A stretch of 64,000 bases of DNA from an uncultured virus (IMG/VR IMGVR_UViG_2061766007_000176) (lineage: Duplodnaviria; Heunggongvirae; Uroviricota; Caudoviricetes). Under the pieces are notes generated by a model. That model ran no database searches, had not been told where the DNA came from, and saw only the letters and a program-made list of their open reading frames with translations. A program made the position numbers and the translations under genes. The stretch lies in IMG/VR virus record IMGVR_UViG_2061766007_000176. One strand, given 5' to 3'. Positions 22,057 to 62,891 of this stretch are shown one piece after another (within the stretch, counting starts at the first letter, position 1; each line of letters begins with the position of its first letter).

Positions 22057-22290
22057 ATGGCATTTATTATTGATAGGTATAATAAGTATGATACGTGGGA
22101 TCGCACACATCAATGTAAAACCTTTGAAATAAATGAGTAGTGGTATGCGGTTTATGAGGTATAGTTGGAGTGGGGATTACCAGTGTTGCCAATGCGCACT
22201 ACCTATGATTAGGATCCGAAATAGTATTTTATTTATGATAAGATAGAGGACGCAATACGATTTGTTTAGTTGATGAAGGGACTTAATTGA
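22057..22290 (+). CDS. Hypothetical protein (TAG=Gln, 77 aa)
   Basis: RBS AGGAG; 5 in-frame TAG, ends TGA. Confidence 0.6.
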
Positions 22291-22706
22291 GTATAGAGCA
22301 ATTTTATTTCATTTCATTTTAAAGTGCGCCTACACCTACCAAATATGGTAGTCATGTATTATTTTCCGAAACTATACTCACTATATGTTGTAATTTCATT
22401 TTCATTTGCGACGATTCATACATAATATAGTAGTCGCGCAATAAAACCCAAAACCCCTCCCGCTATATATTGTAATTTCATTTTCATTTTGAAAATTTCA
22501 TACTATATATCAAATTTTATCACCATATCCCATAACCTCACCCTCTCGTAAGAGAGCCAGACCGCCGCAGGCGGGCTGGATCTCGCACGAAAACGAATTT
22601 TGAGGGACAGACCCGCGTAGCGGGGCTGTGCCGAATAAATTCGTAACCACAGTTAACTATTGACAAATATATTATTTTATTATATAATAAAAGAAAAGGA
22701 GAAAAT

Positions 22707-23081
22707 ATGAAAATTACATTTTATAATCCCAAAACTAAAATGTTGTATACTCAAGATTACGATAAACCGTGGTATTATATATTAAAATTACGCTGTGATT
22801 GTTTTCGTGTATCTAAATATAATAAATATGGTAGTAAATTTTCACGCGAAATATTAAAACAAGGTGGATTAGAAAAAATATCTTATATTGTATCTGACTC
22901 TATTCCATTTTGTAATAATTATAATAATGAATTTATTAGTTATGCGGGACAAATATCTATAGAGCAATGGATTGATACGCATCCAGGAGAATCAACAATT
23001 CCTATACAATCATTTGAAGAATTAAATTTAGCTGTATCGCATAAGCATGATTGGGATACTAGACAAGATATGTATCCATAA
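22707..23081 (+). CDS. Hypothetical protein
   Basis: SigA promoter at 22660-22688, RBS AAAGGAG; no TAG. Confidence 0.7.
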   Translation: MKITFYNPKTKMLYTQDYDKPWYYILKLRCDCFRVSKYNKYGSKFSREILKQGGLEKISYIVSDSIPFCNNYNNEFISYAGQISIEQWIDTHPGESTIPIQSFEELNLAVSHKHDWDTRQDMYP

Positions 23082-23428
23082 TAAGTTCAGTTCCGAAAAT
23101 GCGTCTGATACGGCGCAATTTCATTTTCATTTCCTGTATGTGCGGCCGACCTCGATATGCGCCCTGAAAGACCTGAAACTATACCCCTTTCACTACTTGT
23201 ATCTATGTTCGACCGCATCACATTTTCTCATATACTAAATCTATGGTAACAAAATTTTTAGTTGCCATACATTTTGTAATTTCATTTTATTTCAAAAAAT
23301 TTTATATCTCTACAGCGATACACCCGCCATATCCCAAAACCACCCCATTATTTGACATCTGAAGAAATTTATGGTATATTTTTAGTATAGAAAAATATAC
23401 CTTATTTTTGTATGGAGGTGTATCTGCA

Positions 23429-23590
23429 ATGAATGTTATAGAAAAAGAACAAATGGAAATGCGCCGTAAGCTTGTAAGACAAATTCAAAAAACTATGGAA
23501 AACTACTACGCAAGTATAAATCCAGAAAAATTAGAAGAGATAAAAAATATTATCAAGGGGTATACATTATGCGACAACACGAACAAGTAA
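23429..23590 (+). CDS. Small hypothetical protein
   Basis: RBS GGAGG; promoter at 23352-23380. Confidence 0.6.
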   Translation: MNVIEKEQMEMRRKLVRQIQKTMENYYASINPEKLEEIKNIIKGYTLCDNTNK

Positions 23591-25221
23591 AAGAATTTGC
23601 GGTTGAGGATATTATTAGACTTGTACGCGAAACCGACCTCTCCGACCTTAACACTTTTCTAGTGTTAAATGGCGGCACAGGCGTAGGTAAAACAACCGCT
23701 ATTATGAATAATGTGCTTGCGGAACTTGACCATAAATTTGGTCATCTTCAAACAATGTTAGTGGTAGAAAGCCGCAGCATCACAGTTGAATAGCTACGTC
23801 ATAAGTATGGTGAAGCAGATGTTTGTCAGCGCCTGGGTTTTGCTAACATGATTCGCAAAGGCACTGTAGATTATGATTGGGTAGTAATTGATGAGTGTCA
23901 TGGTCTCTTTAGCGAAGCCTCTTTCGCAGAAGACACAACTATTATAGGAGATTGGATTAAGAATTCGCGCAAAAACACCCACATTATCTTCATTACTGCT
24001 AATGATGAATACTTTGAAGAATTATCAAAACAATTCTTCTCCGATGAATCATCATTTATATATTTGTTTCCCGACTTTACTAAATACGTATCAAATACGT
24101 ATGTAAAGGAAATTCAGTTCCTTAAAACAAAAAATACCAATGATTCACTTCAATACTTCTTGGATCAATAGGAAGGAAAGCGCGGTATTGTATTTCTTAA
24201 AAGCGCAAGTAAAGTAAAAGATTGGTACTTTAAATTGCTTGATTAGAAGAAAGGTGTTGCGATGCTAGTTTCGCGCGCGAATCAAACCGCACTTACTTTA
24301 GATATCACATAGGCACAAATTGCAGCAAAAGACCTATTGCTTGAACTAAGTGATGGTCAGTCTGGTTTAACATTAGCAGACCTACAAGATATGGCAGATA
24401 AGCAACGTATTGCGGATGGAAAGGAATCATTATTTGAAGCATTACGCAACGAGCATTTACCAGATGATATTTCAATTTTGATTGTAACAGATACACTTCA
24501 AGAAGGTATGTCTCTTACATTTCCCAAAATTGACTATATGATTATTGATGGGTATGGGGAAGTTGAAATTAGGCAAAAGGTAGGACGGTTCAGGGGCAAC
24601 TTAGACCAGCTTTTCATTATCTTTAACCCCAATAATGCGCGCCGTGATTTTCAAATTCAATCCGATATGTTCGCGCATTTTCGCAAACTTCAAGCTGAAG
24701 GTAATCAAGTAGAGTTAGCAAAACAATTTGGTATCCTTAAGGGCGCACGCTTTAAAGTAAAATATATTCAAGAACGTATTACTGATAAAGGCGAGAAAAT
24801 GTATGAAGTAAATGAGCAAGCCTATTTACACTTACTCAAAGATCATAAAGATTATTTACATTTAATGGGTAATACAGAGGAAGCGGTTAAAGAAATGTAT
24901 AGTTATTTAGGCGCAACTCCAAAACTTATAGACCCTAATATAATTCGAATTTCAAATTAGAAAGAACTCTTATTAGAAATAGCAGAAAGATGGCGTGGAA
25001 TTCCCTTAAAGGGCCCCGCCCAAGAAGCTTTATTACAAGACTTCAAAGCTATGGGAATAACAGATAAACAGCGACATTCCGTTAATTCATTGCGCGGATG
25101 CACTACACTTTTTATTGACGCAGGAATAACAATTACAGAAAAATAGGCGTCTCTTAAAGACTTAGAACAATGGCCCCAATATTTAACTAAAATACGCGAA
25201 AAATATCGCGTTATTATATGA
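23569..25221 (+). CDS. Superfamily 2 (DExH) helicase (TAG=Gln, 550 aa)
   Basis: GGTGVGKT, IDECH, ITAN, QEGMS, QKVGRFR lie in one frame separated only by TAG (6 in total); ends TGA. Confidence 0.9.
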
Positions 25222-25230
25222 GGTGATTAT

Positions 25231-25788
25231 ATGGCAACATATACACTATATTTTAACCCTGATGCTGCAAATGGTACTCCAAATAACTGGTATACTGGTA
25301 CTACAAAAAATAATACTACTAGTAGCGCCATACCCCCGGGTGAACGTATTACATAGATTGTAATTAACGCGACCGCGCAGGGTTCTAAAAATGAAACCTT
25401 TACTTTTAAATTAGTATCTAATGCTTCAAATGCAAATTCAATTACTATTGGTACACATAAAAAAACCAATGCATCCACTTCATCATAGCAATTTACCCTT
25501 ACTAAGAATTTTACCACTACTGAAGGTAATACCTATGCAGGAAAAAATGTATTCCTTAATTTAACCACAAATGCTAGCGGCGCTTCAATTTGGGGTAGAG
25601 TTACTATGACAGTTACTACAGGTCCTAAATTAACCGCAGTTGTCGCAGGCAATAAGATATATAAGACAGACTTAACACAAACAGGAGCCACCGCGGATGA
25701 TGCTACCTATATCAAATATCGTTCTGTATTCTCCTCTGGTACAAAGTGCGAAGCTTCTACTTTTAATAGTCAAGTACTTGGACTTTAA
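25231..25788 (+). CDS. Thr/Ser-rich hypothetical protein (TAG=Gln)
   Basis: RBS GAGGTG; 2 in-frame TAG. Confidence 0.7.
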
Positions 25789-25848
25789 TATTTGACTTTT
25801 ATCTTAATTTAATTTATAATATAAGTAGTAAGAGAAGGAGGATTTAGT

Positions 25849-26409
25849 ATGAATAAAAATCCCTTATCCGTATGGACATATTCATATCGTAAATCATATT
25901 ATATTTTACATCCTTGGAAATGGTTTTATGATACTTACTGGAATCTTCGTAATTGGATACATAGAGCAAATCGAGGTTATGCTTATGTAGATGTTTGGAA
26001 CCTCGGTAATTGGGCGCCTCGTGTAATTGCTGAAGCTCTTCGTTATCTTGCTAAACATCATTGTGGATATCCTGGTCATGTACCGTGGGAAACTCCAGGA
26101 AAATGGACTGAGCATCTTGAGTATCTTGCTAATCAGTTCCAGCGTTGCGCCGATTTTATGGATGGTGAATGTGAAACTGACGAACGTAATGAATATAAAG
26201 ATGCCTTCTATGAAATGTGTGATCGTACTCATCGTGAATATAAGGATGAAAATGGCAATATCGTTTGGGACTCTGAACGCACTCCTGAAGATGATGAGTT
26301 AAGAGATAAATATTTTAAGCGTTGTGCCGAACTCGCAAAAGTCGATGCGCAATACGCGCGTGAAGTATTTGGTTTCTTTGGAGAACACCTAGGTCATTAT
26401 TGGGACTAA
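25849..26409 (+). CDS. Hypothetical protein
   Basis: SigA promoter; no TAG. Confidence 0.75.
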   Translation: MNKNPLSVWTYSYRKSYYILHPWKWFYDTYWNLRNWIHRANRGYAYVDVWNLGNWAPRVIAEALRYLAKHHCGYPGHVPWETPGKWTEHLEYLANQFQRCADFMDGECETDERNEYKDAFYEMCDRTHREYKDENGNIVWDSERTPEDDELRDKYFKRCAELAKVDAQYAREVFGFFGEHLGHYWD

Positions 26410-26484
26410 ATTTTAAAAATTTTTGGGACTAAATATAATGATTTTATTGTTTCATAATCACCTAATGATATGGAGGTGATGAAT

Positions 26485-27165
26485 ATGATTGGTATTTATA
26501 AAATTGAAAATCAATTAAATCATCATATTTATATAGGACAAAGTACAAATATTTAGAGTAGATGGACAAATCATAAGTGGAATTATAAAGCAAATAAAAC
26601 TGATACTACTTTATATAAAGCTTTTCAAAAATATGGCATTGATAATTTTTCTTTTTCTATAATAGAAATATGCAAAGAAGAAGAATTAGATGAAAAAGAA
26701 ATTTATTGGATAAGTTATTATGATAGTTATAATAATGGTTATAATGAAACACCAGGAGGTCAATTAGGAAAGCCAAGACCAATAGTACAATATGATTTAA
26801 ATGGAAATAAAATTGCCACATATGCCAATAGTCGAATTGCGGCTGGTTTATTAAATTTAGCTTATGGAAATTTAACTACCTGTTGTCAAGGAAAACAAAA
26901 AAGTTATGGTGGTTATTTATGGACTTATGAAGGAGAGCCAGCCCCAGAACCATATGTTGATAATCGTATTGGGCATAAAACAAGTTCATCTAAAAGAATT
27001 ATTCAGTAGTATTCTAAACAAAATGAATTTATAAAAGAATATGAATCAGCGCATGAAGCGGCTCGACAAATAAATAAACCAACTTGTGCTAATCATATTA
27101 CTGAATGTTGTCAAGGAAAAAGAAAAACTTGTGAAGGATATATATGGAAATATAAGGAGAATTAA
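26485..27165 (+). CDS. GIY-YIG endonuclease with two NUMOD1-like repeats (TAG=Gln)
   Basis: MIGIYKI...IYIGQSTNI*SRW; PIVQYDLNG aligns with IIQ*YSKQN. Confidence 0.9.
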
Positions 27166-27166
27166 A

Positions 27167-27400
27167 ATGATTAGTACATTAAAAGAAAAGCCAAGTGGCG
27201 GCTTCTACTGTAGTGAATGTCGTATGAGCACAGCAGAACCTGTAGAAACATGCCCTTTTTGCGGCAGTATTATATCAAATTGGATGGATGTTATTATAAA
27301 GCAAGAAAATGATAAAATACATCGTATTTATGATGTGGATCCCATAACTGGTAAGATAAGGAGTGATAAAGATGAAAGTGACATTTATGGAAGAAATTGA
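27167..27400 (+). CDS. Zinc-ribbon protein
   Basis: CSEC and CPFC. Confidence 0.7.
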   Translation: MISTLKEKPSGGFYCSECRMSTAEPVETCPFCGSIISNWMDVIIKQENDKIHRIYDVDPITGKIRSDKDESDIYGRN

Positions 27401-27599
27401 AGCACGTCATGCTTGGCGTGAATGTATGTATTGTCCACAGTGTAATGAGGGCAAATATAAAATTCATCATCAATTAAAACCCGAAGTATCAAGTGCATGG
27501 TGGCTTGAATGTGAAAATTGCGGCTTTGAGTCATATCCATCTCCTACAAGAGAAATTGCCATTGCGCGATGGAAGCAAGCGAGGAATACCAATGTCTAA
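27372..27599 (+). CDS. Zinc-ribbon protein resembling the Lar restriction-alleviation family
   Basis: CPQC...ECENCG...EIAIARW. Confidence 0.55.
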   Translation: MKVTFMEEIEARHAWRECMYCPQCNEGKYKIHHQLKPEVSSAWWLECENCGFESYPSPTREIAIARWKQARNTNV

Positions 27600-28643: not shown

Positions 28644-28751
28644 ATTAAGCCGCGAAAGCGGCTTCTTTTTTTATTTACCAAAATAAAAACCATTGTTTTT
28701 ATTTTTAAATTCTACCTAATTCTTAGGAATATGTGTAAAGGAGGGATAACT

Positions 28752-29249: not shown

Positions 29250-29261
29250 GGAGGAGATTTT

Positions 29262-29873: not shown

Positions 29874-29887
29874 GGTGGTGACCGCGC

Positions 29888-31089: not shown

Positions 31090-31103
31090 GGAAGTGATTT
31101 ATA

Positions 31104-31796: not shown

Positions 31797-31810
31797 TGGA
31801 GGTAATTATT

Positions 31811-32181: not shown

Positions 32182-33357
32182 ATGATTAAATGTCCATATT
32201 GCGGCGAATCATATTACGCTGAAAACTATAGAGTCTCTACATCAATGTGGTGGACACCAATTTATAAAAATGGTGTTTTAGTAAATGATAATCCGAATAG
32301 TTCTACAGTACATTGCACTTGTATAAATTGCCATAAAGACTTTTCATATAATACTAAGGAGATAGCTGATGAAGATAATATCCGCCCTCTCTAAACTATT
32401 GTGCCACCATTCGTGGTACGTTCTATATCGTGGCAATCTTCAAAAATTATGTAGATGTCGTCTATGTGGAAAAGAGCAATGGTTTAAAACTTGACTTTTT
32501 TCAAAAATTATACTATAATAAATATAGAAAGAAATGGAGGACATTCTAATGAAACGTATTTTACGCCTTGATGAAGACGATATTATAAGAATTTTAACTA
32601 AATGTTATAAAGTTCAACCTGATCAGGTACGTGCATTTTATGCCGACCAAGAAGATAAGGATACAGAAGAAATAGAAACCAAATTCTTTGTGGAGATTGA
32701 AGAAAATGCACGATAATGTTGATAGAATGGCCGATATTATACTTATTGGCGCGGCTTTAACTATAATTATACTAAAGATTACTAATATTATTACAATATC
32801 ATGGTTTTGGTTGTTTAGTCCTATAATTTTTTTATTTGGTTTTGGAATTATACTTGCGATTGGATTAACAATAGCTTGCTTAATTAATATGTATATAGAA
32901 AATAAAAGGAGAAACAAAGATGAAAGGTATTAAGATGTCAGATTGTCGGTTTTATGTAGATGAAACCGCGCGAGTAATAGTATGCGTAATCCCGAATACG
33001 GAATATATGGTAGAAGATTTTATCAGAGATAATTTCGAATATCCAGAAATGGATTTTACCGCTTATGGTAGACTGCGTAATATGATTAAAATGCCATATT
33101 CTTTTATGGGGAAAGCGACTTGCGCGCCCGAAGATGAATGGAATGAAGAACTCGGCAAAAAAATTGCTTTTGCGAAGGCAAAAGATAAGTGTTATAAGAG
33201 TTTCTTTAAGCGGGCAAATGTATATGTTCAGTGTGTCGATCGCCGGTTAGGTGATATGATCAGTGCTTTCAATGATTTCGGCCTTAAACTATCGGTGAAG
33301 CGCGAAGCACTCGAAAAAATTATTGAAAGTGCAACAAAAAAAGAGGGAGATGCTTAA
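32182..33357 (+). CDS. TAG-free island of five small genes (32182-32394, 32369-32494, 32549-32716, 32706-32933, 32920-33357)
   Basis: Two SigA promoters (TTGACT...TATAAT / TATACT); intact in the standard code. Confidence 0.7.
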
Positions 33358-33998
33358 AGCATCTCCCCAATTTCTTTTAGAGCCTATTTAACAACCTATT
33401 CTACCTCTTTTATTATATCAATATAATCTTCCTATTTCATTTCAATTTGTTTTAAAGTCGTATAAGGATAATAGAAACTTAAAATATCCCTAAACCCAGT
33501 ACCTTGTTTAGCCGCTGTGATAGCACCAGACTAGGACATGCCAACACCATGTCCATTCTTTTTTTCTGTTGTCCAATTATCTTTGCGCGCGATTAGATAA
33601 TTACGTTTACCGCCCCAAACTTCTTCACTTGAATAAGTGCGACCACCATTAGACTAACAAAAATATGTTGACGCGTATTTACCACCATACATTAGGACCT
33701 AATTAATAGTAGCTTTTGCAGCGGATTGTGCATTTTTATATGTATAACGAGGTGCGCGAAAAGCTTGCGCTTTGCTTGCGCTATCACTAATAATCTTTCC
33801 ATCAAGCACTCCTTGTGCGCAAGCGTATGTACGTGAAGCGATCGCCTATGCTTTTAAAGCTTCTGCAGGCGCATTTCCCATCTCGCTTGCTACAACAATC
33901 GCAACATAATCTTCAAGTTCTATTTCTTTTATAGTATTTTTCTCACACCCATAGAACTTCATATTTTCATTAGTTGTAATTTTAACTTTAATTTTCAT
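33354..33998 (-). CDS. SpoIID/LytB-family peptidoglycan lytic transglycosylase (TAG=Gln, 214 aa)
   Basis: LEDYVAIVVASEM...EALKA*AIASRTY and GHGVGMS*SGA...ILSFYYP; absent from the ORF track. Confidence 0.9.
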
Positions 33999-34811: not shown

Positions 34812-37800
34812 ATGGTTATGGCGTTACATACGTATAATAAGACGACATGGAAGGTCGGCGATCCAATTACGCAAGAGTTAATGAATCATATTGAAACTGG
34901 TATTAAAGATGCTTATACCGATATATCAACAATTGATTCAACTGTTGGAACCCATATCACCGCTATTAGTGAGATAAATGGAACTTTAAGTGGTATAGAT
35001 AGTGATATTGATAGACTAGAACGTGATGTAGCTAATATTGGTGTATATGGTAAAGAAGGCGATGCGGCCTGGAACCAAGTTGCTGCTGTAGTTCAAATAG
35101 CAAGTGGTACTGTGGAACAAGGTAATTTAGTTTACACTAAAACCTTAAAACAAATTATAGATACAATTGATGCTAAGGCTGGTAGTACTGCTAACGAAGT
35201 TTCTGCCGCGCGTAAGGGACAATCGACTTTAGCCGATAAGATAGATGCGATAGATACTACACTTACTAGCTTATCTGGTGGTATCACTACTATTAATGAT
35301 AAATTCGCTTCTGCTAAAGTTAGTCCTTATTATGGTGATCGTAATTCTATAGATCAACGTTTATCGGAAGAAGAAGCAAGAACCAGAGATGTAATTACTG
35401 AAGTATCTAATGCTCATGAATCTACTACATTTAATAAGATTAATGAGAATAAATATGCTTCATTAGATGATCGTTTTGAAGCTGATGAAGTTCGTATTCA
35501 AAATATATAGACTGAATTAGCTAATGCTCACGAATCCACTGCTTTAAGTAGAACTGGAATTAGTGCTTTCGGATCTATTGATGCGCGTTTTGAAGCAATT
35601 GAAGAAGAATTGGTCGGTACAAATGCTATTAGTTCTCGTATTGATACATTAGCTGGTGATGTTAGCGATTTATCTACTAACAAAATTAATACTTCAGCTA
35701 TCGCAAATAATCTAACTACTGATACTGCTGGAAAAGTATTAGATGCTCGTCAAGGTAAAGCATTAAATGATGCTAAAATTAATTATACTGATATAATTGA
35801 TGATGTAACTCATACTGATACTGATAAACCATTAAGCGCCAATCAAGGTAAAGTATTAAAAGATGCTATTGATACTATCAGTAGCGGATTAAATACAGCT
35901 GAAACTGGATTAGTAGCAAGAGTTAGTGCGCTAGAAACTGAAGTAGATATGACCTCTGCTAGTAGTCGTATTGATAGTGCCTTATCACGTCTAGATGCGA
36001 TTGATGATAGTAGCACTGGCGCGATTAAGGGTATTAATGATAAGATCGATACTATCGCGGGTGAACTTGGTATGACCGATACTAATGGCTTAAAAACATT
36101 AGGTACTCGTGTTGATGAATTAGAAGGTAATATTGAAACCGTAGCTACTGAATTAGGTATGGTTCAGAGCGGTGAAATCGTTAATACTAATACACGTATT
36201 GATACATTAGATGCCACTATTAATGATGCTTCTACTGGTTTAGCAGCAACAAAGGCTATTGCTGACGCGGCCGCGACCGCAAGCGATCTAACTGCTTTAG
36301 CTGGTCGTGTTACTACATTAGAAAATAATCCACAATCTTCTACATTAGTTGTAGAACAAGTAACATACAATAATGATGGTATTCCTACTAATATAAGTAG
36401 TCCTTCCGCTGATATTGATTATCTATTAAAGAAAGATAATGATTATTACTATTGGAAATATATTAATAATACTTGGAAACTTATTAGTGGAGGCGGCGGA
36501 AGTGGGACTTCTTCTGCTGAGTTCTATTCTACTTTACCTATTACTGGTGAAGAAACAGTTGATTACTTTATTGGATCTGGTACTAATTATATTCACTATC
36601 GTTATTTAAATAATACATGGGTACAAATTCTACCAGAAGGACTTATCAATAATGTATCTGTTGATACCTCTTCAATTACTGTTGGAGAAGGTGCTAGTGC
36701 TATTACTACAAATAAGAGCAGACCAATTATTACAGCTATTGGTAGTGAAACTAACTTATTAGCTGGTTTTAATGCTATTCAATCTTTCACCGCTGAAGCA
36801 CTTCAAGATAATGCTGGATATAAATTAACTTGGGTTAATATAGATGGCGAATCTAATGATATTACTATTACGGGTGGCGGCGGATCAGCATCCGCGGCAA
36901 ATGCGACTATTACCCGTATTACTGATGGTAATATTACAACCATTACAGGAGAACCATGTAATATTAGTTTTAAATATATCGCTACTGAAGCAGACGGATC
37001 TCTCGCGGCAACAACAGCAACTGCTACATGGTATGTTAATAGAGTGCGCGTTGCGACATCTCCTGTTACTATAAATCAACCTAATGATGAACAAGTTCCA
37101 TCAACATTAACTGATTATAATACATTTAATATTGCTTCTTATTTACAAACTGGTGTAAATAGTATTACATTAAGTGTTAGTATTGTTCTTGATGATGAAA
37201 CAATTACTCGCACTAAAACATGGTCTGTTGATGTTAAAAATTTCTCATTAGAATGGGAATATGATGAAAGTACTGTTAATAGTGATGATAATATTGTATT
37301 CTCTTGTGTCCCATATGGTATTGATCTTACAAAGACACTATATTTAAAAGTGGGCGCGAATACACAAACTCAAACTGTTACAACAAGTGGTATTCCTACA
37401 ACTGTAACATTAGCTAATAATTTTAATCATGGTGTGTATACTGCGGAGATGTGGATGACAGCTACAATTAATGGTTAGTTAAAAGAAACTACTCCTCATA
37501 TTTTCCATGATTTTCTTGTAGTTGAGGCAGGTAATACTGCTCCGATTATTGCTGCGACTTTACCAGCCACTACTATTAATCAATATGATACTATTACTAT
37601 TCCATTTGTAGTTTATAATCCAACATCCACGACTTCAACCATTACTTTATCAGAGGGTGTAACAGTAGTAGATACGCGCGAAAATATAGGAAGAACAACT
37701 CAAAGATGGTATTATACTCCTATGACTTCCGGCGCGAAAACATTAACAATTACTTGTGGTACATCTACTAAAACATTAAATCTCACTGTTAATAGTGTAA

Positions 37801-40800
37801 ATATTAATAATGAAGAAATTGGTGGATATGCTTTTAAACTAAAGGCTAGTGAATTACCAAGTAATAATGCTTTATAGAATTGGTATTATGGTAATCCAAA
37901 TACAACTAAACTACAATTCTCTAATAATTTTGACTGGATTAATGGTGGTATTCAGACTGAATTGGATGAAAATAATCAAATTCGTCAATATATTCGTATT
38001 AAATCCGGTACAACGATGACAATTCCATATAAGATGTTCGCAACTGATCCTCGTAGTAATGGCGCGAATTTCAAAATTATTTTTAAAGTAGATAACTGTC
38101 GTGATTATGATGCTAATGTATTATCTAACATGGATCAAATTACTAATGAAAATGAAGACTTAATAGATAATATTGGTATTAAAATCAATGCTCATAATGC
38201 TATATTTAAATCCACAACTACTGAAATTAAGACCCAGTATGGTGAAGATGAATATACTGAACTTGAATTTGAAGTATATAAGGCAACTGATAATCAAGGT
38301 AATGAAGTTGCTGGATAGTATATGATGGCATGGATTGATGGTGTTATGACAACCGCGCGCAAATATGGCGGTAACTTTGTATAGGATGACAATAATCGTA
38401 AAGACATCGTTATTGGATCTATGGCTTGTGATATTTGTATTTATTTAATTAAATATTATGCGAAAGCATTAACTCGTAATGATCATATTACAAACTTTAT
38501 TGCCGATGCTCCAAATGCCGCAGAAATGGTTGCGCGTTATAATAGAAATGATATTTTAGACGCCGATGGAGAAATTAGTTATGAAAAACTTGCTCATAAC
38601 AATCGTGATTGTCGTGTTTGGTTATATGATATTTCTCGTATGACTAAGGCAAAAGACGATTCCGTTGATGTTTATAATTTCCAACAAATTTGGGAAAATG
38701 GTGATGATTATTATCAATTACAAGGTACTAATGCGAAAATGAAGATTCAGGGTACATCTTCTGTTAACTATCGTTATGGTGCGGCAAATACTGATATTGA
38801 TTTTGGTAAAAAGAAAGCACCAAATGCTACATTAGTAGATGGACGCGGAAATAATCTATTAGATGATAATCTTGAATATCCTGGATTTAAAATTAATGAT
38901 AACTCTTTACCAATTACATATTCAAATACAAAAGTTAACTTTGCTTCTTGTGAACAAGTTAATAATATGTGTAATGCTGAGTGGTATCAACGTTATCAAC
39001 CATTCCCAAGCTTATCCGCGCGTGACTGTATGGAATTCGCGATGGGCGTTCAATTTATTAAAGACAGACATGAAAGTGAACCATCTGATGGTATTCCTCT
39101 ATTTACAGAAAAAACCAATTTCAATTCTGAAAAATACTATATGTATTCTATCGCAAATATGGGAACTTCCAAAAAGAATACTCATATTTTCCACTCTGAA
39201 GATGAATGCTGTATTGAAATTAAAGAAAATACATCTAATGCTCAAAAAATGAAATCTTTCGACAGTGCCTGGACCGATAATGATGCGAATGTTTAGAACT
39301 ATGAAATGCGTTATCCAGACGTTAAGAATACTAAAGTTCCAAATGATATTAGAGATGGTTGGGCACGTTTTGTACAGTGGATGGTCGCTAATGATCCTAA
39401 TGCAGCAACCGACGCAGTGTTAGACAGTGCAGTAACATTTGCACCTTATACATTCCGTGGTCATAATCGTACTGTTACAGAAACTGAAGGGCGTAACTTT
39501 AAATAGGTATTACGTGGAGTTACAGTATCTTAGTATGCTGGCACTTATGATCATGATACATTCGAATATCGTATGGCAAAAATGCTATCAGAATGTGAAG
39601 ATTATATGGCAATGGACTCTATTATTTACCATTTCTGCTTTATCGAGCGTCATACAATGGTTGATAATGTAGCTAAAAATACATTCTGGTCTTCTTTAAA
39701 AGAAGTTGGCGGTCCAAATGATGAAGAAGGATACTGGATCTGGGATTTAAGTAAAAACTATGATAATGATACTTCTGATGGTAATAATAATAATGGCCTA
39801 TTAGTATTTGATTATGGTAACGAGGCAACCGATACTCGTGAAGGCACTCCAGTCTTTAATGGTAGTGACGCAGTTTGGTTCGTATTCGCAAGTAATCTAT
39901 ATGAAGCTTGCCGCGCGATGTTCATAGATCGTGAAGCAATAGGTGCTTGGAATAGTACTAATTATCATAATTACTTAACTACTGAACAGAAGAAAGTACC
40001 AGAACGTGTATGGAATGAATGTTATTGGTATGATTACTTACGTACTTATGAAGCAGCAGTAGCTGATCCAGAGAATGAAAATCTTGATCCACTCTGGATT
40101 GGTTTCCTCGATGGCGGTCAAAAGATACATCAACGTAATCATTATGAAACATATGAAGAAATTTACGATTCTTCTAAATATAGAGGCGGTTTTGCTCATA
40201 ATCAAGCAGTTGTTCTCCGTGGTGAGGCAATTGATTATTAGACATTAGGACTACCCGCGCAAGAAAGTAAATTTACTATCACGATGTTTAATAAATGTTA
40301 TTTAACAATTTGGATCGGTACAAACTATCAGACAGTTAAATGTCAGAAGGGCGTTCCTGTTACATTATATTTCTATGAAGATAATGATCCAAACCAAGGC
40401 TATATGTCACTTTCTAACTCTGTTATTGAAATTGACTCTGGATCAATGATTCAAACAATTGGTGACTTATCACTAATTTATCCAAGTAGCGGTCAATTTG
40501 CACCAGCAAAGAGATTACGTTCATTACAAATTGGTTCAGATGTTGCAGGATATTATAATCCTAATATGAATACTAATACAGTATTAACATTCAATAATAG
40601 AATGCTAGAGTACTTATATGTATAGAATCTACCACAAGCAACTTATGATCTAGATTTAAGAAATTGTCCAGAATTAAAGTATATTAATGCGGCTGGTTCT
40701 GGTTTTACTGGTTTCACATTTGCTAATGGCGGATTATTAAATGAAGCATATATTAATGCTCCTACAAGCTTAATTATGCGTAATCTTGACTATTTAACTA

Positions 40801-43316
40801 ATGCTAATTTCCATCTTGCTACTCCAACAGCAGTAACTTCATTACGTTTAGAAGGATGTAAGTTATTTAATAACTATACTTTCATTAATCAATTAACTAA
40901 CTTAAATGTATTACGCTTAACTAATATTAATTGGTCATTAGATAATAATACATTATTAGATAGATTACTTAATCTAATGGGTATTGATGAATCTGGATAT
41001 ACAGTGTCTCAATCTTATTTAGCTGGTAATGTTGAATTAATCGGTACTGTATATGGTGGAGATTATAATGATTATCTAAGCGCTTGGAGTCCTGACTTAG
41101 TAATTGATGTTTCTCACGCAAGTCAATTTATTGCTTAGCATTTAGTATCATATTATGATGAAGACGGTACACTTTTAATGAGTAAATACATCAATCATGG
41201 TAATAATATTGTTGATATTGTTAATACTCAAGAATTAGCAACTCCAACTAAAGCAGCAGATATCCAATATCAATATATTTTTGGTAGCTTACAATATAGT
41301 TAGTATTTACCATATTCTGGTTGGCGCCTTTCTTCTGATTCTCAATCTATTAGAGAAACTTACGGCGCGAATCCGAATGTTCCTGTTAATGGAGATACTA
41401 GTGTATATGCTGTTTATACTACTACACCATAGCAATATGTTGTGCGCTGGGTTGTTGGCAATAAGATAATCACAACCACTGAGCCACAAAATTATGGTGG
41501 CGGTTATAACTTATCTGCTCCAACTATTAAAGATGTACAAAACGCGGGCGCTAGCACTTGCTCCTTTACTGATAACGGTAATGGTACTTGTAGTTATCGT
41601 ATCATGACAGGTTGGGAAAAATTACCTACTAATATTTCTCCTACAAGCGCAACCGGTCCATATGATATTAATGCGACTTGGTTAGAGCGCACAAATGTTA
41701 ACTGTAATACAGTATTAACTAGTAATGAGTATAGTGTAGAAGAAAAATTGTTAGTGCTGAAAAATATTTAGAGTATGAGAGCTAATCTCGAAATATAGGA
41801 TGTATTCCCAGTAACCCTAGGTTATGATGGTATTAAACCAGGAATTACATTATTAGCTTCGCCAAAGCGTTATACTGGTACAGCGGATGCTCCAATTACA
41901 ACTTACAGTCCATTTAGCGCGGATAAGAGTTTTACATTAGCAATCGATTATCGTTTTGAACACGTTGTTAATGATTCAGCAAATGAAGCTGTATTAATGT
42001 CCTGTTATAATGATTCTGAAGGTAGTATTCAAGGATTTAAACTTTTCTATAATCCAAGATCTACTAATAGTAATCCTGTACCTCAAATTAGTTTTGGTAG
42101 TACAGCAACAATTAGTGATACAAATGTATATACTATTGGTTCTACTATTAATAATCGTGGCATGCTTGTATTAAGACACATTGCTGGAGAACCAATGTTA
42201 TATGTGTATTCTGGTTCTAATACAGGTGGATTAATTACAGAATATGATGCTAATACTTTCCGTAAAGTATTAACAATTGAGAATTTTGTAGCATCCAATG
42301 CGAAGATTATTCTCGGTGGTATTAATTCCAGTAGTTCTTCTTCTGCTAATGCCAGCGGTACAATTTATTCTGTTAAATATTGGGAAGAAGATTTAGGTAA
42401 TGGTGAATGTATGTAGTTAGCTAATTGGTGTCATGAAACAATGAACTTTGCGGTTCAAGATTTTACTGAAACAGCTGCGCATAGCGCATTACCAATTCAA
42501 AATACCAATATTATACTTCATACATTAAATGCTTCATAGATGGGTACTATCACAGACGCATTAATTGATACTTCTACAGAATCTTCTGTTGGTTGGGATC
42601 CTTCTACTATTAGAACATTCTATAATAATCGTCTATATAATGCTTTACCAATTAAATTATAGAGTATTATGGCGCCAGTAGCAATTAAGCATGTAAAGGC
42701 TCCTAAAGGAGATGCGGGTTATAGTATTGGTAACAATGACTCTACAACACTTGATTATGTATTCGCACCAAGCTATCGTGAAATTGGTATGTAGGCTGGT
42801 GATAATGAGAATTATCTAAATGAATCTTCTGGTAAGTTTGTTTGGTCTGGATTAAAGATTCTATAGTATTCTAATGGACAATTTGTTCAGTAGTCCAATG
42901 CTAATTATATTAATATCAGATTCCCATATCAACCAATAATTATTAATAGTAATACTAAAGTTTTCTTAGATTATCCGTCTACTAGCGGTAGTTTTGAATC
43001 ATATGCTAGCAATCAAGCTTTAGGATTAAGAACCGGTGATATATTAATTCCTAGCAATCATGCTGCAGCTTATATTTATATTAGTGGTACTGATGTAATT
43101 AATGGTGCGCCATTCTCATTAAATACTGCTAATTATTTAACTACTTCAACAGGTGCCTGGATTGAATCTACTTCTTGGTGGACTCGTTCTGTTTCAACAG
43201 GCACGATGGCTGGACGTAATAATTCTAGATTTATTTCTATTAATAATATTGGCACAGCACAATCTGGTACATCTAATATTAGAACTAATGGCATTGTTTA
43301 TTCAATAGCACTATAA
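34812..43316 (+). CDS. Giant virion/tail protein, 2,834 aa (TAG=Gln)
   Basis: Ten ORF-track fragments share one frame, broken only by about 20 TAG; coiled-coil N-terminus, beta-rich middle, CotH-like segment, LRR-like segment, WWTRS near the C-terminus. Confidence 0.85.
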
Positions 43317-44801: not shown

Positions 44802-45209
44802 ATGGCAAAAAGAAAGGGCCGTACCGCAGCTGCTGCGTTACAATACAGTAAAAAGATGAGTAAATTCATCTGTTGGGTTTGGGCGCTATACAGGTTTGGA
44901 GTTTTAATTGCTTCTACTTATTAGCCTGCGTCGGCCTCGGCCTTAGCATCAACATTAGCTAATTTAGATTGGATTATGTTAGTAAATGAAGGCACATATT
45001 TAATTAACTCCTTAGGTGAAAAGTATATATTCAGTGATAAGTTCATATTGAGATGGATTGATAAAGGAGGAGTTAGTGATATGATTGCTCGTCTTAGTGC
45101 AGTGGGCGAAGCTGTAAAGACACAAGACGAATAGGCAGAAGAAGAATTGGGTATAGAAGATGAAGAAGTAACTGGAGGTGAGGAAGATGGCGGAGATTCT
45201 TGCGGCTGA
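44802..45209 (+). CDS. Putative membrane or holin-like protein (TAG=Gln)
   Basis: Basic N-terminus, hydrophobic segments, acidic tail; overlaps the endolysin start; 2 TAG. Confidence 0.55.
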
Positions 45210-45975
45210 TTTAATAGCTAAATTCCAATATGCCTTAGATAATAAGTGGGGCTATATTCTTGGTACTTGGCATACTAAATGGACACAATCATTACAAAAC
45301 CAAAAAGTAAATTATATGGTTAATAAATATGGTAGTGGCTGGAAAACTAGTGAAAGTGCTAAAAAAGACGATTATTATTATGGTGCTTTATATGGCGCGA
45401 AATGGATTGGATAGTGGGTAACAGATTGTTCTGGTTTATTCTACTGGGCATTCAAGGAACTTGGCGGCTATATGTATCATGGTTCTAATACTATGTGGAA
45501 TAAGTACTGTAATAGTAAGGGTAAACTTAATAAGGGTAAACGCGCAGATGGCTAGCCTTTAAAACCAGGAACCGCTGTTTTTGTATTAAAAAATGGTACT
45601 AATCGTTCTCACGTGGGCCTTTATATTGGTAATGATACAGTGATTGAAGCTTCTGGTACTCAATCTGGTGTTATTACTACTAAAATTACTAATACCAAAT
45701 GGTCAGAATGGGGCGAGCTTAAGGGTGTTATTTTTATATCCACTACCACTACTACGACCCCTTCAACTCCTACAACTTCTACTCCTACAACTACAAAGAG
45801 TGCTTTAGTAATTGGAACACGATTGGCTTTACGTTCGGCGCCATCCACCGACGCAACAATTCTCACCCGTGTTAATACAGGCGAGCGCGTTCAATTGCTT
45901 GATGACACAGAATGGGTTAAAGTTAAATATTAGGGTAAAACCGGATATATGATGGCTAAATACCTACAATTTTAA
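45187..45975 (+). CDS. Endolysin: NlpC/P60 peptidase plus SH3b (TAG=Gln)
   Basis: DCSGL and HVGLY catalytic motifs, Thr/Pro linker, LALRSAPST...WVKVKY*GKTGY; 3 TAG. Confidence 0.9.
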
Positions 45976-54127: not shown

Positions 54128-54132
54128 TACCT

Positions 54133-54979: not shown

Positions 54980-55689
54980 TGGCAACTAATTCTGTAAAAG
55001 TTACATTATAGATTCGTCACGATGAAGCGGCAGATTGGGTAACAAGAAATCCAATTTTAGCATAGGGCGAATATGGTTTGGAAACTAATACTTTTCTTAT
55101 TAAAGTAGGTGATGGAGTTCGTGATTGGACACATTTACCCTATCTAAATAAATTAGATAGTACATATTTCAAATGGAATACTGATGGTACAATTACTTTT
55201 AGCGATGAATTTGCTCAAACCATTAGTAATATTATAATAAATGCTGGTGGGTCTACAAAGATTGTTATATCAGATGATCCTGTAGAAGAAACCGATCCAA
55301 TTAATTTACGCTATTTATAGGAAGCAATATAGACAGCCATTCTTAACGCGCATCATCTTAAACGATAGGTTGTAGAATATTTACCATCTGCCGCAAGCGC
55401 TGATGTAGATACCCTATATATGGTTCTCGCGCAATCCGGAGATCATTATGAAGAATATATGGCTATTAATGGTGTTTGGGATATGGTAGGTTCTACAGGT
55501 GATGGAGGCTCTGGTATTTTTCAACTAGAGGTTGCAACGGAAGCTCGCTTAGGCGGAGTTCGAGCGTCTCAATTAGCTGATCAAATTAATGTAAATGCTG
55601 AAGGTATTATGACATTAAATTAGGTTGCAACAACTAAATTATACGTTCCAACAGGAGATACTTTTATTATCTATGGCGGCAGTGCTTAA
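54979..55689 (+). CDS. Mtd_N-like domain tail protein (TAG=Gln)
   Basis: L*IRHDEAADW..NPILA*GE...KVGDG...W..LPY. Confidence 0.75.
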
Positions 55690-55703
55690 AGGAGGTGAGC
55701 TAA

Positions 55704-57527: not shown

Positions 57528-57546
57528 ATAATAAGGAGGAATGAAT

Positions 57547-58053
57547 ATGCCACAATATAATACACGCATATAGTTAAAAAGCGATACTGAGGCGAATTGG
57601 AATAAAGTTCCAAATTTCGTTCCTCTTGATGGGGAATTTATTATTTATTCAGTCGATAATGAGCATTCTTATTGTCGTTTAAAAGTTGGCGATGGCACAA
57701 CAACAATATCAAATTTATCTTTTATAGATTCGGGTACTATTAATGGTGAAGAGGTAGAAATAGTTAAAAAAGTAACTTTTAGTCAATTTCCATAGCCTGG
57801 ATCATCAGATAAATTATACATAGATTTATCAACTAATCGTATTTATCATTATGATACCTATAATGGATATGCACAACTATCAAATTTTTCTTTTGAAGTT
57901 ACAAAAACAGCGACATCTATTATTAATAGATGGAGTGCCGGTACTGTTACTACGGCGTCGGTTAATGATAATATATTAAGTATAAAAAATGGCTTAATAC
58001 CAGAATTATCTTATCAAAATATATAGGTAGTAAGTGATATACAAAGGGAGTGA
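57547..58053 (+). CDS. Mtd_N-like domain protein (TAG=Gln)
   Basis: RI*LKSDTEANW...PLDGE...KVGDG. Confidence 0.7.
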
Positions 58054-58058
58054 GTTAA

Positions 58059-59024
58059 ATGGGAACATATGTGGGTAAATTACAAATAGGCAATGATAGC
58101 AATAATTTAATTGCTTTTGGTGATATTTTATATGGTACTTGTACTACCGCAGCATCAACCGCGACAAAAGAGGTTTCAATAGCAAATTTAGATAGAGTAC
58201 TATAGGGTGTTCAAATACGTGTTAAATTTACCGCAGGTAATAGCGCAACATCGAGCGTAAAATTAACTTTCCCTGGAACCTCTATTACTGAACACTTTGT
58301 ATAGGGTGATTGCGTGTGCTCAGCCGATAGCGTGATTAGCTTTACTTATGATTATGATGGAACTAATGGATATTGGCGCGTAACCAGTGGTGGTATTAAT
58401 CAGGCAATTAGAGATTATATAACTGGGGTAACTAGTGGAGCTATTAATGCTGTAGATGCTTTAGTATTTAAAGGAACTTTAGGCAATGGTGGTAATATTA
58501 CTGCTGTACCAGATGGTACTTCTGGGCATACTTATAAAATTGGTGAAACCTATAGAATTATTACTCCAGGAACTTATGCTGGACAGGCATGTGAAAGTGG
58601 TGATTTATTAATTGCTATTGCTAATTCAATAGAAAACTAGACTCAAGTTAATAATGATCACTGGACTGTGGCATAGACTAATATAGATGGCGCAGTTATA
58701 GGCCCAGCTGCGGATAATAATTTAGGAAATCATGTTGCTATTTTTAATGGCACTACAGGTAAATTAATTAAAGATAGTGGTTTTACTATTGGTAAGTCAG
58801 TACCATCCGATGCTGTTTTTACAGATCATGAATATCATTTAGATACCACCAATGTATCGCCATATACCGCTAGTGAAGCAATGACATCTGATTCTGATGG
58901 TAATGGAACTGTCCTAGTTACTGTAGAAGCTGGTATATTAAAACTAGCAAATGGTATAAAATTTACAACTAGTACAGCAGTGGGAACCGCTGTATTAGAT
59001 GCTGGAGCAACCCATTCAAGTTAA
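58059..59024 (+). CDS. Tail-fibre-like protein (TAG=Gln)
   Basis: YGTCTTAASTATK, FTYD, FKGTLG, WTVA*TNIDGAV. Confidence 0.75.
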
Positions 59025-59041
59025 TTAAGGAGGTGAGCTAA

Positions 59042-61165
59042 ATGGCTGCTACAATAGGAAATTTTATTGATCGAATCTAGCTGGGTACCGATGATACCCA
59101 TCAAATAGCCATTGGCTCTTCAGCTTATGCCGTATGCGAAACTATCGCATCAACCCAAGTAAAAGAAATTACAATTCCAGGTTTTACTTTAAACACTGGT
59201 ACCACAATTCATGTTAAATTTATATATGAAAACACTGCTACAGATCCATAGTTAAAAATTGGAACTGGCACACCACAATATATTGTACAATATGGTATTG
59301 AAAAAGTTGGAACAAATAGTGAAACTGCCGGATGGTAGGCGGGTGCAGTTTTAACTTTAACATATGATGGTACAAATTGGGTAAGGGATTAGGGTTATAA
59401 TACTAATACAAGTTATACACATCCAACCACTTCTGGTAATAAACATATTCCATCTGGTGGATCGGCCGGAAAAATACTTGGATGGGCTAGTGATGGTACA
59501 GCTGAATGGATTGATTATTCAGGTAATGATGGAAATACTTATAAACCTAAACAGACAGCTTTTACTGATAGTACCGGTACTCCCGATGGTAATAATACCG
59601 CTACAGCTTTTATTTACTCATTCTCATAGAATGAAAATGGTGTCGTCCAAGATATAATAACTCGCGCATTACCAGTAGCATCAACTACCGCTCCAGGTAT
59701 TATTCAAATAGGAACTGAGTCAACGCATGCATTAGCCGGTGACACCGTTGTAACTAATGTATCTTTTACTAATATAACTTCCTCCAATGATGAGTATCCC
59801 GTATTATTTAAAAATACTACTGGTACCACTAATAGTGATGGTGGCGTTTGTTTTATTTCTGCAAACGAGAAAAATGTAACTATTAATGGTAGTACCGGCA
59901 AATTAAGTGCAGAAGCAGGGTTTATTGGAAATGTTACTGGTGATTTAACTGGAACCGCGTCCTATGCAACTGCGGATTCATAGGGAAATACTATTCATAC
60001 CACCTATGCTCCAATAAATAGCCCTGAGTTTACAGGTACACCATTAATTACAACGACCCCAACCGATGGTGATAGTAGTCATAAAATTGCTGACACCGCT
60101 TTTGTAATGAATACATTAAAATATGTTGATGCAATGTTATTTAAAGGAACTATTGGTGATATAGATGATAATCCTACTGTAACTTCTTTACCAATAATAC
60201 ATGAAGCAGGCTGGACATATCGTGTTGTCACTGCCGCTACATATAGTATTACAGATTCTACTGGTCGATATTGTGAAGAAGGCACTCTAATTATTTGTAC
60301 AACCGATGGAACAGCAAGTAATCCTGCTGATTGGACAGCTATAGAAACTAATGAAGACGGCGCGGTTATAGGACCTACTAGTAGCACTAATAATGATATT
60401 GTAACATTTTCTGCAACCTCTGGTAGAGTTATACAAGATAGTGGAAAGACATTTTCTACAGCTACTCCAACTACCTCATCAACTGATAATTAGATTCCAA
60501 CATCTAAAGCTGTATGGGCGGCGATTAATGGTTTAGATACTATTATAAGTGGTTGTGGAGCAGAAAAAACTCTTGCAACATTAACTGAATCTGATGGTAT
60601 AATTAGTGCAACATTTTAGAATGTTGCTATTTCACTGACCGCCGCAGCAGAGAGTAGTTATTGGAATTTTACAGGTTCTAACAATAATGAAACAAATAAA
60701 GTAAAATATTCATTAGCACCATATAGTTCTAAATAGAATGGAGCTAATTTTTATACTGGGACAACAGCTCCAGATGGCACTGACCGTTTAAATTATAATG
60801 GTTATTTTTATGCAACAAATTTATACTCAAGTAAAGTATATCCAGGAACTAATACCAGTTATGGTAATGCATATACTCCAATTTATTGGAATGATGGCGT
60901 TCCTGCTGAAGTTACCATAATAAAAAAATATACATTTAGTTTTGCTGATTCGGGCGCGACAACTACAGTTGTTACGCCAGATAATATTAATATTGGAACT
61001 CATATAGTAACAGAAATTGTAGTTGATACCGGTATATCACATCTAAATGGATCAATTAGCTGGAATGTGCCAACTACTGGTGATAATGCAAATAAAATTG
61101 TATTAACTACTATAGCTACATCAGGTACTGTAAGTGGTTATATTTTAGTTTCTACAGGATCTTAA
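59042..61165 (+). CDS. Tail-fibre-like protein (TAG=Gln, 707 aa)
   Basis: YTHPTTSGNKHIPSGG, APINSPEFTGTP, FKGTIG; shares modules with 58059-59024. Confidence 0.75.
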
Positions 61166-61223
61166 ATACTTGACAACTTATTATAAAATATGTTATAATA
61201 AAGAAAAAAAGGAGGTAATTCCT

Positions 61224-61559
61224 ATGGATGCCACTCAAATTTTACTTGGTATTATTTTAATTTTAGGTGGTATAGCGACGCTAATCGTCTGGCCTTACAT
61301 TAAAACTCATGTTTCTGCTGAATAGCTTTCTATATTAGCAGGAATTGCATAGACTGTGGTGTATGCAGCTGAAAAGATCTTCGGCGCAAAAATGGGTGAA
61401 GATAAATTAGCCTATGCTTTAAACCTAGCAAAGAAACTACTTGAAAAGAAAGGTGTAACTTTCGACGAAGAAGTAATCCGTGCGGCAATCGAGGCACAAG
61501 TACAAGAATTAGATTTAAATCAGCAAGTCCTTGAAGAACCCGAGGAAACGGAAGAATGA
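61224..61559 (+). CDS. Holin, LL-H-like (TAG=Gln)
   Basis: N-terminal TM helix, then VYAAEK...GEDK...IRAAIEAQV; 2 TAG; SigA promoter at 61170-61199. Confidence 0.8.
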
Positions 61560-61831
61560 AAGCTTACGTAAGTACTGCTAATAAGGGATCAGTAAATTTG
61601 CGCGAATCCACTAGTAAATCTAGTAAGGTTCTCGCGCAGATCCCTTATGGCACTGCTCTCGAAATTGAATATGTAGATAATACATGGTCACGCACGGGAT
61701 ATAATGGAAAAGTAGGTTATGTAATGACCGAATTCTTATCAAATGGAAAATCAATTACAAAAAATGATTTACAACAAGTATATGATAGTCTTAAGAAAGC
61801 TCTTGAGACTATTGAAAAAATATTAAAGTGA
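61556..61831 (+). CDS. SH3b domain protein
   Basis: VNLRE...W...YNGKVGYV..EFL. Confidence 0.8.
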   Translation: MKAYVSTANKGSVNLRESTSKSSKVLAQIPYGTALEIEYVDNTWSRTGYNGKVGYVMTEFLSNGKSITKNDLQQVYDSLKKALETIEKILK

Positions 61832-61838
61832 GGTAACT

Positions 61839-62891
61839 ATGGACGAATTTGGATGCCCATATTGTTGGGACTCAAAGAAAGAAAAAGAAAAAGAGCTGTA
61901 CTTCTTTGATGCAGCAAATAATTTTAAACTATGCGACTACTGCCCCAAGTGTGGTCGTAAGTATGGGGAGGAAACGGTTAATGAATACATGGAATCAAAA
62001 CAACGTAATGATGGGGTAGACACCGCAATATAACCCCTATCTACAAAGATTGCCAGTTTATTCTGCGGCACCAATACATGGAGAAAATGCAGCATGGCAA
62101 TTTCCAATGGGCTCTAATAGTGAAATATATTTACCAGATGCAGATGAAGATATAATTTGGTGGATACGTACAGATGCTACGGGCAATAGAAGTGTCTAGC
62201 CTTTTGATGTGTCACCGCATAAAAAGCCAGAACCTATTGATATGAATAATATATTAGAACGTTTGGGTGCAGTGGAGGAATGGATAAATGGCAAGTAGAA
62301 TAAGTCAAATGCGAAACGAGCTACCACAACAGTAGCTCCCGCAACAACTGTCACAGCAACAGTTGAATGATTCAATCGCGCGAACTCGCGCACTCATGGA
62401 ACAATATAAGGTAATAAACAATAAAGAAGCCGTTATAATGAATTTATTACAAAATAATCCATAGTTGGGATAGCTCTCAAGCATGTTACGTTAGGGCAAT
62501 AATTTAGAAAATATTGCAAAAAACATGGCACAAATGGGTGGCTATAATATAAATGAAATTCTTCGCGGCTTGGGAGGTCCTTAATATGAATGTTATTAAA
62601 TTCAATAACTCTGAATTTGAAGTTGAATCTTATACTAAAAATACCTATTTTACTCAAGAGGGCATAATTAGTAATGCAAATTGTTCTTTAAATACCAATA
62701 ATATTGAGGCAGTAAATGCTTTAGCTGAAGGCGCTATTACATCAATTGTAATTGAGCATGATCATTTAGTTATCTATAGTTTAACCGATGTTAATGCTAA
62801 AATTGACAACATTAATGAATATTTAAATGGCAATAGAATGAATATTAGTTTAACTTTAACATTTACTAATGATACGATAGCAGATGCTTAA
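61839..62891 (+). CDS. Four hypothetical proteins (61839-62033; 61981-62370 and 62288-62584 with TAG=Gln; 62586-62891)
   Basis: RBS-linked; PQQ*LPQQLSQQQL shows TAG inside a Gln tract. Confidence 0.65.

Follow-up and report, generated by a model that had tools for sequence, protein, structure and literature searches.

A phage amber suppressor tRNA carrying a second, glutamine-type anticodon-like arm

Gut phages that read the stop codon TAG as glutamine (genetic code 15) have been described (Borges et al., bioRxiv 10.1101/2021.08.26.457843; Peters et al., PMC9523058), and how their suppressor tRNAs become charged when the phage provides no synthetase was named as an open question by Borges et al.; in the accessible text of that work the recodings named are only TAG-Gln and TGA-Trp, and a second arm is unmentioned. 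The same question arises at a 64,000-nucleotide (nt) stretch of DNA (the window) corresponding to bases 62001-126000 of a linear virus record of 133,352 bases (IMG/VR IMGVR_UViG_2061766007_000176, here G000; ~71% complete). An initial annotation of the window had proposed that TAG is reassigned to Gln between positions 22057 and 62584, and had rightly connected this to the known code-15 phages. Alignments indicate that the TAG recoding of G000 is real, although code 15 is already known and the recoding itself is relevant only to annotation; the novelty is a two-arm CUA tRNA located outside that block. As judged from sequence comparisons, this suppressor is a real, conserved and apparently unpublished design, and a role of its second arm in charging is likely, which if true would answer the question of Borges et al. 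directly.

The CUA tRNA and its second arm

The tRNA gene is found ~800 bases downstream of the 22057..62584 block (coordinates are those of the window unless otherwise indicated):

63367..63459, plus strand: amber suppressor tRNA of 93 nt with a class I D arm, A1.C72, G73, an encoded CCA and two anticodon-like arms (ARAGORN, Rfam)
63392..63408, plus strand: arm 1, a tRNA-Trp-like anticodon arm (loop 63397-63403, anticodon CUA at 63399-63401)
63411..63427, plus strand: arm 2, a Gln anticodon-like hairpin (loop 63416-63422, CU-CUG-AA; CUG at 63418-63420)

Arm 2 is contained in a variable region of 23 nt; its stem consists in G000 of three firm pairs plus A.G and U.G, and is followed by a 4-nt variable loop. 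Both hairpins can form simultaneously, and the spacing from arm 2 to the T loop is that of ordinary tRNA-Gln. Other identities were rejected. Class II tRNAs (Ser, Leu, Tyr) have a distinctive D arm; this class was ruled out since TAG aligns to Gln and the D stem, of 4 base pairs, is class I. A su7-type amber tRNA-Trp (su7, or supU, is the amber tRNA-Trp suppressor of E. coli) was also set aside: arm 1 is Trp-like, but the tRNA has a second arm and an acceptor stem unlike that of the relatives' tRNA-Trp. A Shine-Dalgarno role for arm 2 was dropped, the run not being kept in relatives. Finally, tRNA-Pyl (pyrrolysine) was ruled out by the 23-nt variable region and the presence of GG and TTC, the hallmarks of that tRNA being a 3-nt variable loop and the lack of G18G19 and TPsiC (PMC7609411). 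No separate tRNA-Gln was found in G000 (~71% complete); genes of the GluRS/GlnRS type or for release factors were found neither in G000 (71% complete) nor in relatives G001-G005, and no TrpRS/TyrRS-type gene (PF00579) was found in five records. Two RNA runs gave no coverage of the tRNA, which, the data being contigs only, is uninformative.

The arm-2 hairpin plus T loop was sought in viral and genome sequences. Among the matches listed, 92 of 120 viral and 97 of 122 genome ones were ordinary tRNA-Gln, mostly with a spacing equal to that of arm 2, and CUA tRNAs with an extra arm accounted for 13 viral matches and one genome match. An unbiased scan on arm 1 alone, covering 37 of 64 database parts, yielded 104 distinct CUA tRNAs; the variable region was short in 56, of 14-18 nt in 11 (mostly Ser/Leu/Tyr-like) and of 19-24 nt in 37. 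All 37 of the last group keep YUG at the anticodon place, and U33 is present in 35 of them, Y32 in 36 and A37 in 33, at a chance of ~0.11 each and with the proviso that related sequences are not independent. Three inner pairs of the five in arm 2 change on both sides in an alignment of 49 sequences. A two-arm CUA tRNA is present in five of six near-complete recoded relatives and in none of three standard-code relatives. The standard-code relative G023 carries an odd, short gene resembling a tRNA, in which CUA lies in an atypical loop (G023:C1:91293-91369).

A mirror of this arrangement was found among opal tRNAs. After a first pattern had proved too loose (two tRNA-like among 120 loci, with 3 of 64 parts scanned), the opal scan returned 34 matches, 25 of which (20 distinct) are UCA tRNAs with the Trp loop CU-CCA-AA, 24 of them on stems of 5-8 pairs; this loop was itself part of the search pattern. 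A terminase (TerL) match was obtained for 10 of 18 records with opal two-arm tRNAs, TGA being present in eight of those 10 and TAG in none. For 24 amber two-arm records, chosen for length, there were 18 TerL matches, 17 with TAG and none with TGA. In the TerL columns, TGA is led by Trp (104) and TAG by Gln (347). Record G038 has an opal two-arm tRNA and little sign of TGA being Trp in its genes; the tRNA may there precede or follow recoding.

One tRNA in the supplement table of PMC12636597, tRNACUA-44, combines CUA with a CCA arm, which prompted a scan for this crossed case. It was found in one of 57 viral matches and in none of the 68 matches of a metagenome scan. The viral example (G074:C1:10262-10354; L869), from a 146-kb relative, is a CUA tRNA with a Trp arm that adjoins a tRNA-Trp. 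That TAG is Trp in G074 was predicted before alignment; Trp then stood opposite TAG in 52 of 108 cells; counted by position, it did so at 30 of 45 and Gln at 0, with TAG aligning to Gln in the controls G068, G000 and G001. In G074, these alignments indicate, TAG is read as Trp. Over the phages compared, the inserted residue agrees with the second loop, YUG going with Gln and CCA with Trp, even when arm 1 is CUA. The acceptor stem of G074 is also Trp-like, so that arm 2 and tRNA body are confounded and the effect of the arm is not isolated.

Activity data are available for 213 phage suppressors screened in E. coli extract (PMC12636597), a work in whose accessible text 'variable' never refers to an arm. 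The tRNAs of its supplement table were classed by eye as two-arm or other. Against reference values of 5,403 (no tRNA) and 69,124 (wild type), at least 20,000 units were reached by 13 of 13 two-arm UCA tRNAs, as opposed to 2 of 18 others (2 of 12 if only plausible ones are counted). Two single-arm UCA tRNAs require their own phage TrpRS. As a separate observation from that table, tRNACUA-60, -83 and -86 are the only two-arm CUA tRNAs without the arm-2 A37, and all three are weak, which hints that arm-2 sequence matters.

A role for the second arm in charging

Arm 1 would pair with UAG on the ribosome, and the Gln-type arm 2 is probably the handle by which a host synthetase charges the tRNA with Gln. 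By means of its own CUA tRNA the phage would read TAG in low-copy virion, lysis and homing-endonuclease genes, and a phage synthetase would not be needed. The 1-72 pair distinguishes GlnRS identity from that of the GluRS/GatCAB route; as the tRNA has A1.C72 and not U1-A72, host GlnRS would be the enzyme that charges it. The Gln determinants include anticodon U35 and G36 and the 1-72 pair (PMC9976931). A single class I core would be maintained by the D stem together with the short loop that precedes the T arm, and either arm could stack below it: in the charging state, arm 2 would be stacked under the D stem and presented to the host synthetase, and in the decoding state arm 1 would face the ribosome while arm 2 projects in the manner of a class II arm. 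On balance, these molecules may well constitute a natural tRNA class in which decoding (arm 1) is split from identity (arm 2), the arms exchanging the anticodon position. If true, this would break the rule of one anticodon for both ribosome and synthetase, make the meaning of a recoded stop predictable from the tRNA alone, allow a swap of arm 2 to rewrite the code without a new enzyme (as in G074), and offer a modular suppressor-tRNA route for code expansion. Equating TAG read-through with Gln would mis-annotate some phages, G074 among them.

Several results weigh against a charging role. The minimum-energy fold of the tRNA gives no cloverleaf, the two outer arm-2 pairs are poor in the 49 aligned sequences, and 56 of the 104 CUA tRNAs of the unbiased scan are single-arm. 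The recoded relative G003 (98% complete) has no CUA tRNA by ARAGORN or the two-arm model, G066, G036 and G038 have two-arm tRNAs but a stop-free TerL, and G000 is only ~71% complete. Acceptor stems vary with the amino acid, the tRNA of G074 and the opal tRNAs have Trp-like bodies, and the crossed case rests on one genome. In E. coli extract, half the wild-type value or more was reached by 18 of 23 two-arm CUA tRNAs and by about 72 of 139 others (P = 0.02; the comparison uses the total of 90 given in PMC12636597), and five of the 23 two-arm ones were weak. Since single-arm CUA tRNAs are often active, arm 2 is dispensable for amber suppression in E. coli.

Arm 2 could alternatively be viewed as a passive relic of duplication or recombination, with charging governed, as for su7/supE, by the acceptor stem and by U35 in CUA. 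GlnRS does charge amber tRNA-Trp and other CUA tRNAs (PMC9976931), many single-arm CUA tRNAs are active in E. coli extract (PMC12636597), and acceptor stems suit the inserted amino acid. A relic is nevertheless unlikely to have kept YUG in 37 of 37 cases, with C/U wobble exchange, despite diverging stems and bodies, or to become CCA where Trp is inserted; moreover, single-arm UCA tRNAs are mostly inactive without their own TrpRS (PMC12636597). It is more doubtful still that arm 2 serves some other reader of anticodons, be it in CAG/CAA decoding, as a T-box signal or as a decoy for an anticodon nuclease. Every anticodon-loop hallmark is retained, as any such reader would demand, and the incomplete G000 contig showed no separate tRNA-Gln; however, an ordinary tRNA-Gln or tRNA-Trp accompanies the two-arm tRNA in relatives, the arm occurs beside stop-codon anticodons only (13/13 viral and 1/1 genome among the matches listed), and arm 2 follows the inserted residue. 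Removal of either arm would leave a normal cloverleaf, but a precursor that loses one arm to become an ordinary tRNA-Sup or tRNA-Gln is very improbable, given that two-arm transcripts are active as suppressors at full length in E. coli extract (PMC12636597) and, as a weaker point, that both arms are present in one RNA-library contig covering 63366-63459, with no arm-skipped form listed (these data are contigs only, and may stem from DNA or a precursor).

Reading and placement of TAG

That TAG is Gln in this phage was upheld by a gain in open reading frame (ORF) coverage under code 15 together with TAG aligning as CAA and CAG do. For ORFs of at least 100 amino acids (aa), coding density between 22057 and 62584 rose from 0.417 under code 11 to 0.890 under code 15, the controls giving 0.473 (TGA read through) and 0.763 (TAA read through). 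For ORFs of at least 150 aa the values were 0.230, 0.753, 0.246 and 0.486, respectively. Since the TAA control rises too, density by itself is no proof, which is supplied by the alignments. In-frame TAG numbers 137, in 35 of the 45 ORFs of 22057-63337, alongside 265 CAA and 53 CAG. In three standard-code relatives, Gln stood opposite TAG in 23 of 77 cells (30%), opposite CAA in 26% and opposite CAG in 36%; other residues opposite TAG were Glu (7), Lys (7), Ser (5), Leu (3) and Tyr (1). When 11 genes outside the window were compared with 69 related loci, the TAG columns held Gln 754, TAG 467 and Lys 251 times in 2050 cells; 18 of the loci, a standard-code sister group, have 0-1 TAG, and the remaining 51 share the TAG pattern. 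Over the whole G000 contig, TAG stood opposite Gln of five non-amber genomes in 192 of 489 cells. It is scarcely credible that TAG is instead Ser, Leu, Tyr or Pyl by way of a class II or Pyl tRNA (the variable region is long, and under code 11 ARAGORN calls a tRNA-Pyl), given the residue counts in the standard-code relatives, or that the genes are broken, given a single 4736-codon frame with 140 TAG and the repetition of the pattern in 51 of 69 loci.

The recoded genes and the TAG-free region are as follows:

22057..62584, plus strand: late-type low-GC block under code 15 with tail-fibre, virion accessory, lysis and homing-endonuclease genes (ORF, GC, Pfam)
23569..25221, plus strand: SF2 helicase-like accessory gene, 6 TAG (weak Pfam DEAD match below cut-off; in one of six relatives)
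26470..27165, plus strand: GIY-YIG/NUMOD homing endonuclease, 2 TAG
33354..33998, minus strand: SpoIID-like gene, 7 TAG (Pfam)
34812..43316, plus strand: tail-fibre-repeat protein of 2834 aa, 21 TAG
45178..45975, plus strand: NlpC/P60 + SH3 cell-wall hydrolase, 3 TAG
61134..61559, plus strand: holin (LLH family), 3 TAG if counting begins at the first start codon, which is possibly upstream of the true start
10474..11292, minus strand: GIY-YIG/NUMOD1 homing endonuclease, 7 TAG, a low-GC recoded island in the TAG-free early region
4223..21109, plus strand: high-GC early-type region of 19 small genes with strong ribosome-binding sites (0 TAG/40 Gln codons)

Individual sites singled out by the initial annotation were found as described in SpoIID (Pfam E-value 1.8e-15; TAG at 33846-33848 in EALKA-x-A and at 33531-33533 in GHGVGMS-x, minus strand), in NUMOD (27007, inside IIQ-x-Y) and in a Gln tract (62333-62335). 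For the 'IQ.R' of Mtd_N, TAG is indeed present (as L-TAG-I-R at 55009), but one residue ahead of the Pfam match. The range 22057..62584 is recoded as proposed, but recoding also occurs beyond it, at 10474-11292 and at contig positions 17030-55431. Recoding of virion and lysis genes was borne out, and homing-endonuclease genes are likewise recoded. Its supposed extension to replication genes did not hold: the only such gene in the window is the accessory SF2 helicase-like one, and the core replication genes, elsewhere on the contig, are TAG-free.

In RecJ, DnaE, NrdD, NrdG and dUTPase of G000, 0 of 107 Gln codons are TAG; in three recoded relatives DnaE, RecJ, NrdD and NrdG have none either, and dUTPase has two in one of them. 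None of the 40 Gln codons in the 19 early-type genes, which were picked by their strong ribosome-binding sites, is TAG, and homologues in relatives are found for seven of these genes. (Longest-ORF calling of this high-GC region had produced opposite-strand shadows without Pfam match, and ribosome-binding-site calling was used instead.) TAG makes up 203 of 424 Gln codons in portal, TerL, tape measure and three tail genes, and 0 of 33 in the putative major capsid, tail tube and decoration genes, likewise 0 in relatives; these three labels derive from gene order and size in a stretch with assembly gaps. The lack of TAG in replication, early and major virion genes points to its avoidance early and at highest output. 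Suppression would compete with RF1, and TAG would thus be excluded from genes needed before the tRNA accumulates or at very many copies.

TAG might also have been selected in late genes as a timer of lysis and assembly, rather than having drifted there, an idea put forward in bioRxiv 10.1101/2021.08.26.457843 and in keeping with 0/107 replication and 0/40 early Gln codons as against 203/424 in the six virion genes. This is possible but doubtful. The TAG:CAA:CAG ratio of the tape measure (140:126:24) would match AT-biased drift, the lysis genes are not enriched in TAG (holin 3/4/2, NlpC 3/7/0), none of the 33 Gln codons for the most abundant late proteins is TAG, and the suppressor tRNA sits behind a host-type consensus promoter. 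With the tape measure ratio as predicted by AT-biased drift and no enrichment in lysis genes, the TAG distribution seems to fit tolerance better than a selected timer.

Related systems and genomic setting

As in the code-15 gut phages, the recoding of TAG to Gln affects structural and lysis genes and spares those for replication, and a phage CUA tRNA occurs with no phage synthetase and with standard-code close relatives; as far as the accessible descriptions go, those phages differ in that the second arm, TAG-free major virion genes and a relative with TAG as Trp (G074) are features of the present group. Phage phAss-1 (OQ749652; Babkin et al., PMC10607447) shares the SPbeta-like terminase family and code 15, and its 88-nt tRNA-Sup-CTA has the same two-arm design (88.6% identity over 70 bases); the words 'variable', 'arm' and 'anticodon' are absent from the accessible text of PMC10607447. 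Unlike G000, phAss-1 has single-arm suppressors besides, and its TerL is only 31.4% identical in amino acids, which places G000 outside the proposed genus Phassvirus (>80% nucleotide identity to phAss-1). The E. coli amber tRNA-Trp suppressor charged with Gln (PMC9976931) also combines a Trp-like CUA arm with G73 and Gln insertion, but is a laboratory mutant with a single anticodon arm. The closest precedent is the engineered pseudo-anticodon V-arm tRNA (Mukai 2020, PMC7590224), an amber tRNA whose variable position was given a second anticodon arm; that synthetic arm improves charging modestly and works only with a synthetase to which an extra anticodon-binding domain has been fused, whereas the phage tRNA occurs naturally and apparently relies on host enzymes in unmodified form. 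Anticodon-mimic arms engaging a host synthetase also occur in the tRNA-like structure of Brome mosaic virus, which undergoes a large rearrangement (bioRxiv 10.1101/2020.09.18.302638), and in the E. coli thrS operator (PMC9976931); unlike the phage tRNA, neither decodes a codon on the ribosome. A literature search, outside of which subscription papers lay, found no description of a natural tRNA with two anticodons or of a phage in which TAG is Trp.

The best sequencing-run matches to G000 were bovine gut metagenomes, and its close relatives have genomes of 167-188 kb. Its terminase resembles those of SPbeta-like phages of Bacillota (Geobacillus E3, 35%; phAss-1, 31%). The best 25 TerL matches were Bacillota phages (Geobacillus E3, Enterococcus, Bacillus, Lactococcus), phAss-1 and one further record; no crAss-type terminase was seen among them, and G000 was not found to belong to the crAss-like phages. 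Codes 11, 15 and 4 are mixed among the relatives, a feature of the Agate clade of Borges et al.; TerL is 32-35% identical to that of phages with an opal tRNA like that of the Agate representative, from which it is separated by a long branch in a quick tree in which no named Agate TerL was compared. As this tree has long branches, no order of events was drawn from it.

The tRNA is preceded by the following elements:

62895..62923, plus strand: sigma-70/sigma-A-type promoter upstream of the tRNA unit, 12/12 consensus (consensus match only)
62928..62990, plus strand: Rfam cow-rumen-4 RNA motif, leader of the tRNA unit
62987..63337, plus strand: TAG-free ORF of 116 aa preceding the tRNA, also in standard-code relatives

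The cow-rumen-4 motif, directly 3' of the promoter consensus and overlapping the ORF start, may control the tRNA unit. The suppressor is followed, in several relatives too, by a tRNA-Gly(UCC)-like gene whose T loop is non-standard (63534-63604; detected by Rfam, not by ARAGORN). Positions 63605-63940 of the window are GC-rich and non-coding, give no Rfam match and are partly covered by RNA-library contigs. GC content drops from ~0.47 to 0.34 near position 22000. The high-GC small genes of positions 1-22000 include duplicated blocks (6393-7079 resembling 14943-15541, and 3555-4181 resembling 5105-5797). Elsewhere on the contig, the presumed capsid and decoration genes seem to occur several times over, in copies interrupted by gaps, probably through misassembly (G000:C1:45002-49313; L004), and a 2075-aa tail protein terminates in a Hint/intein-like domain (G000:C1:17030-23257; L002).

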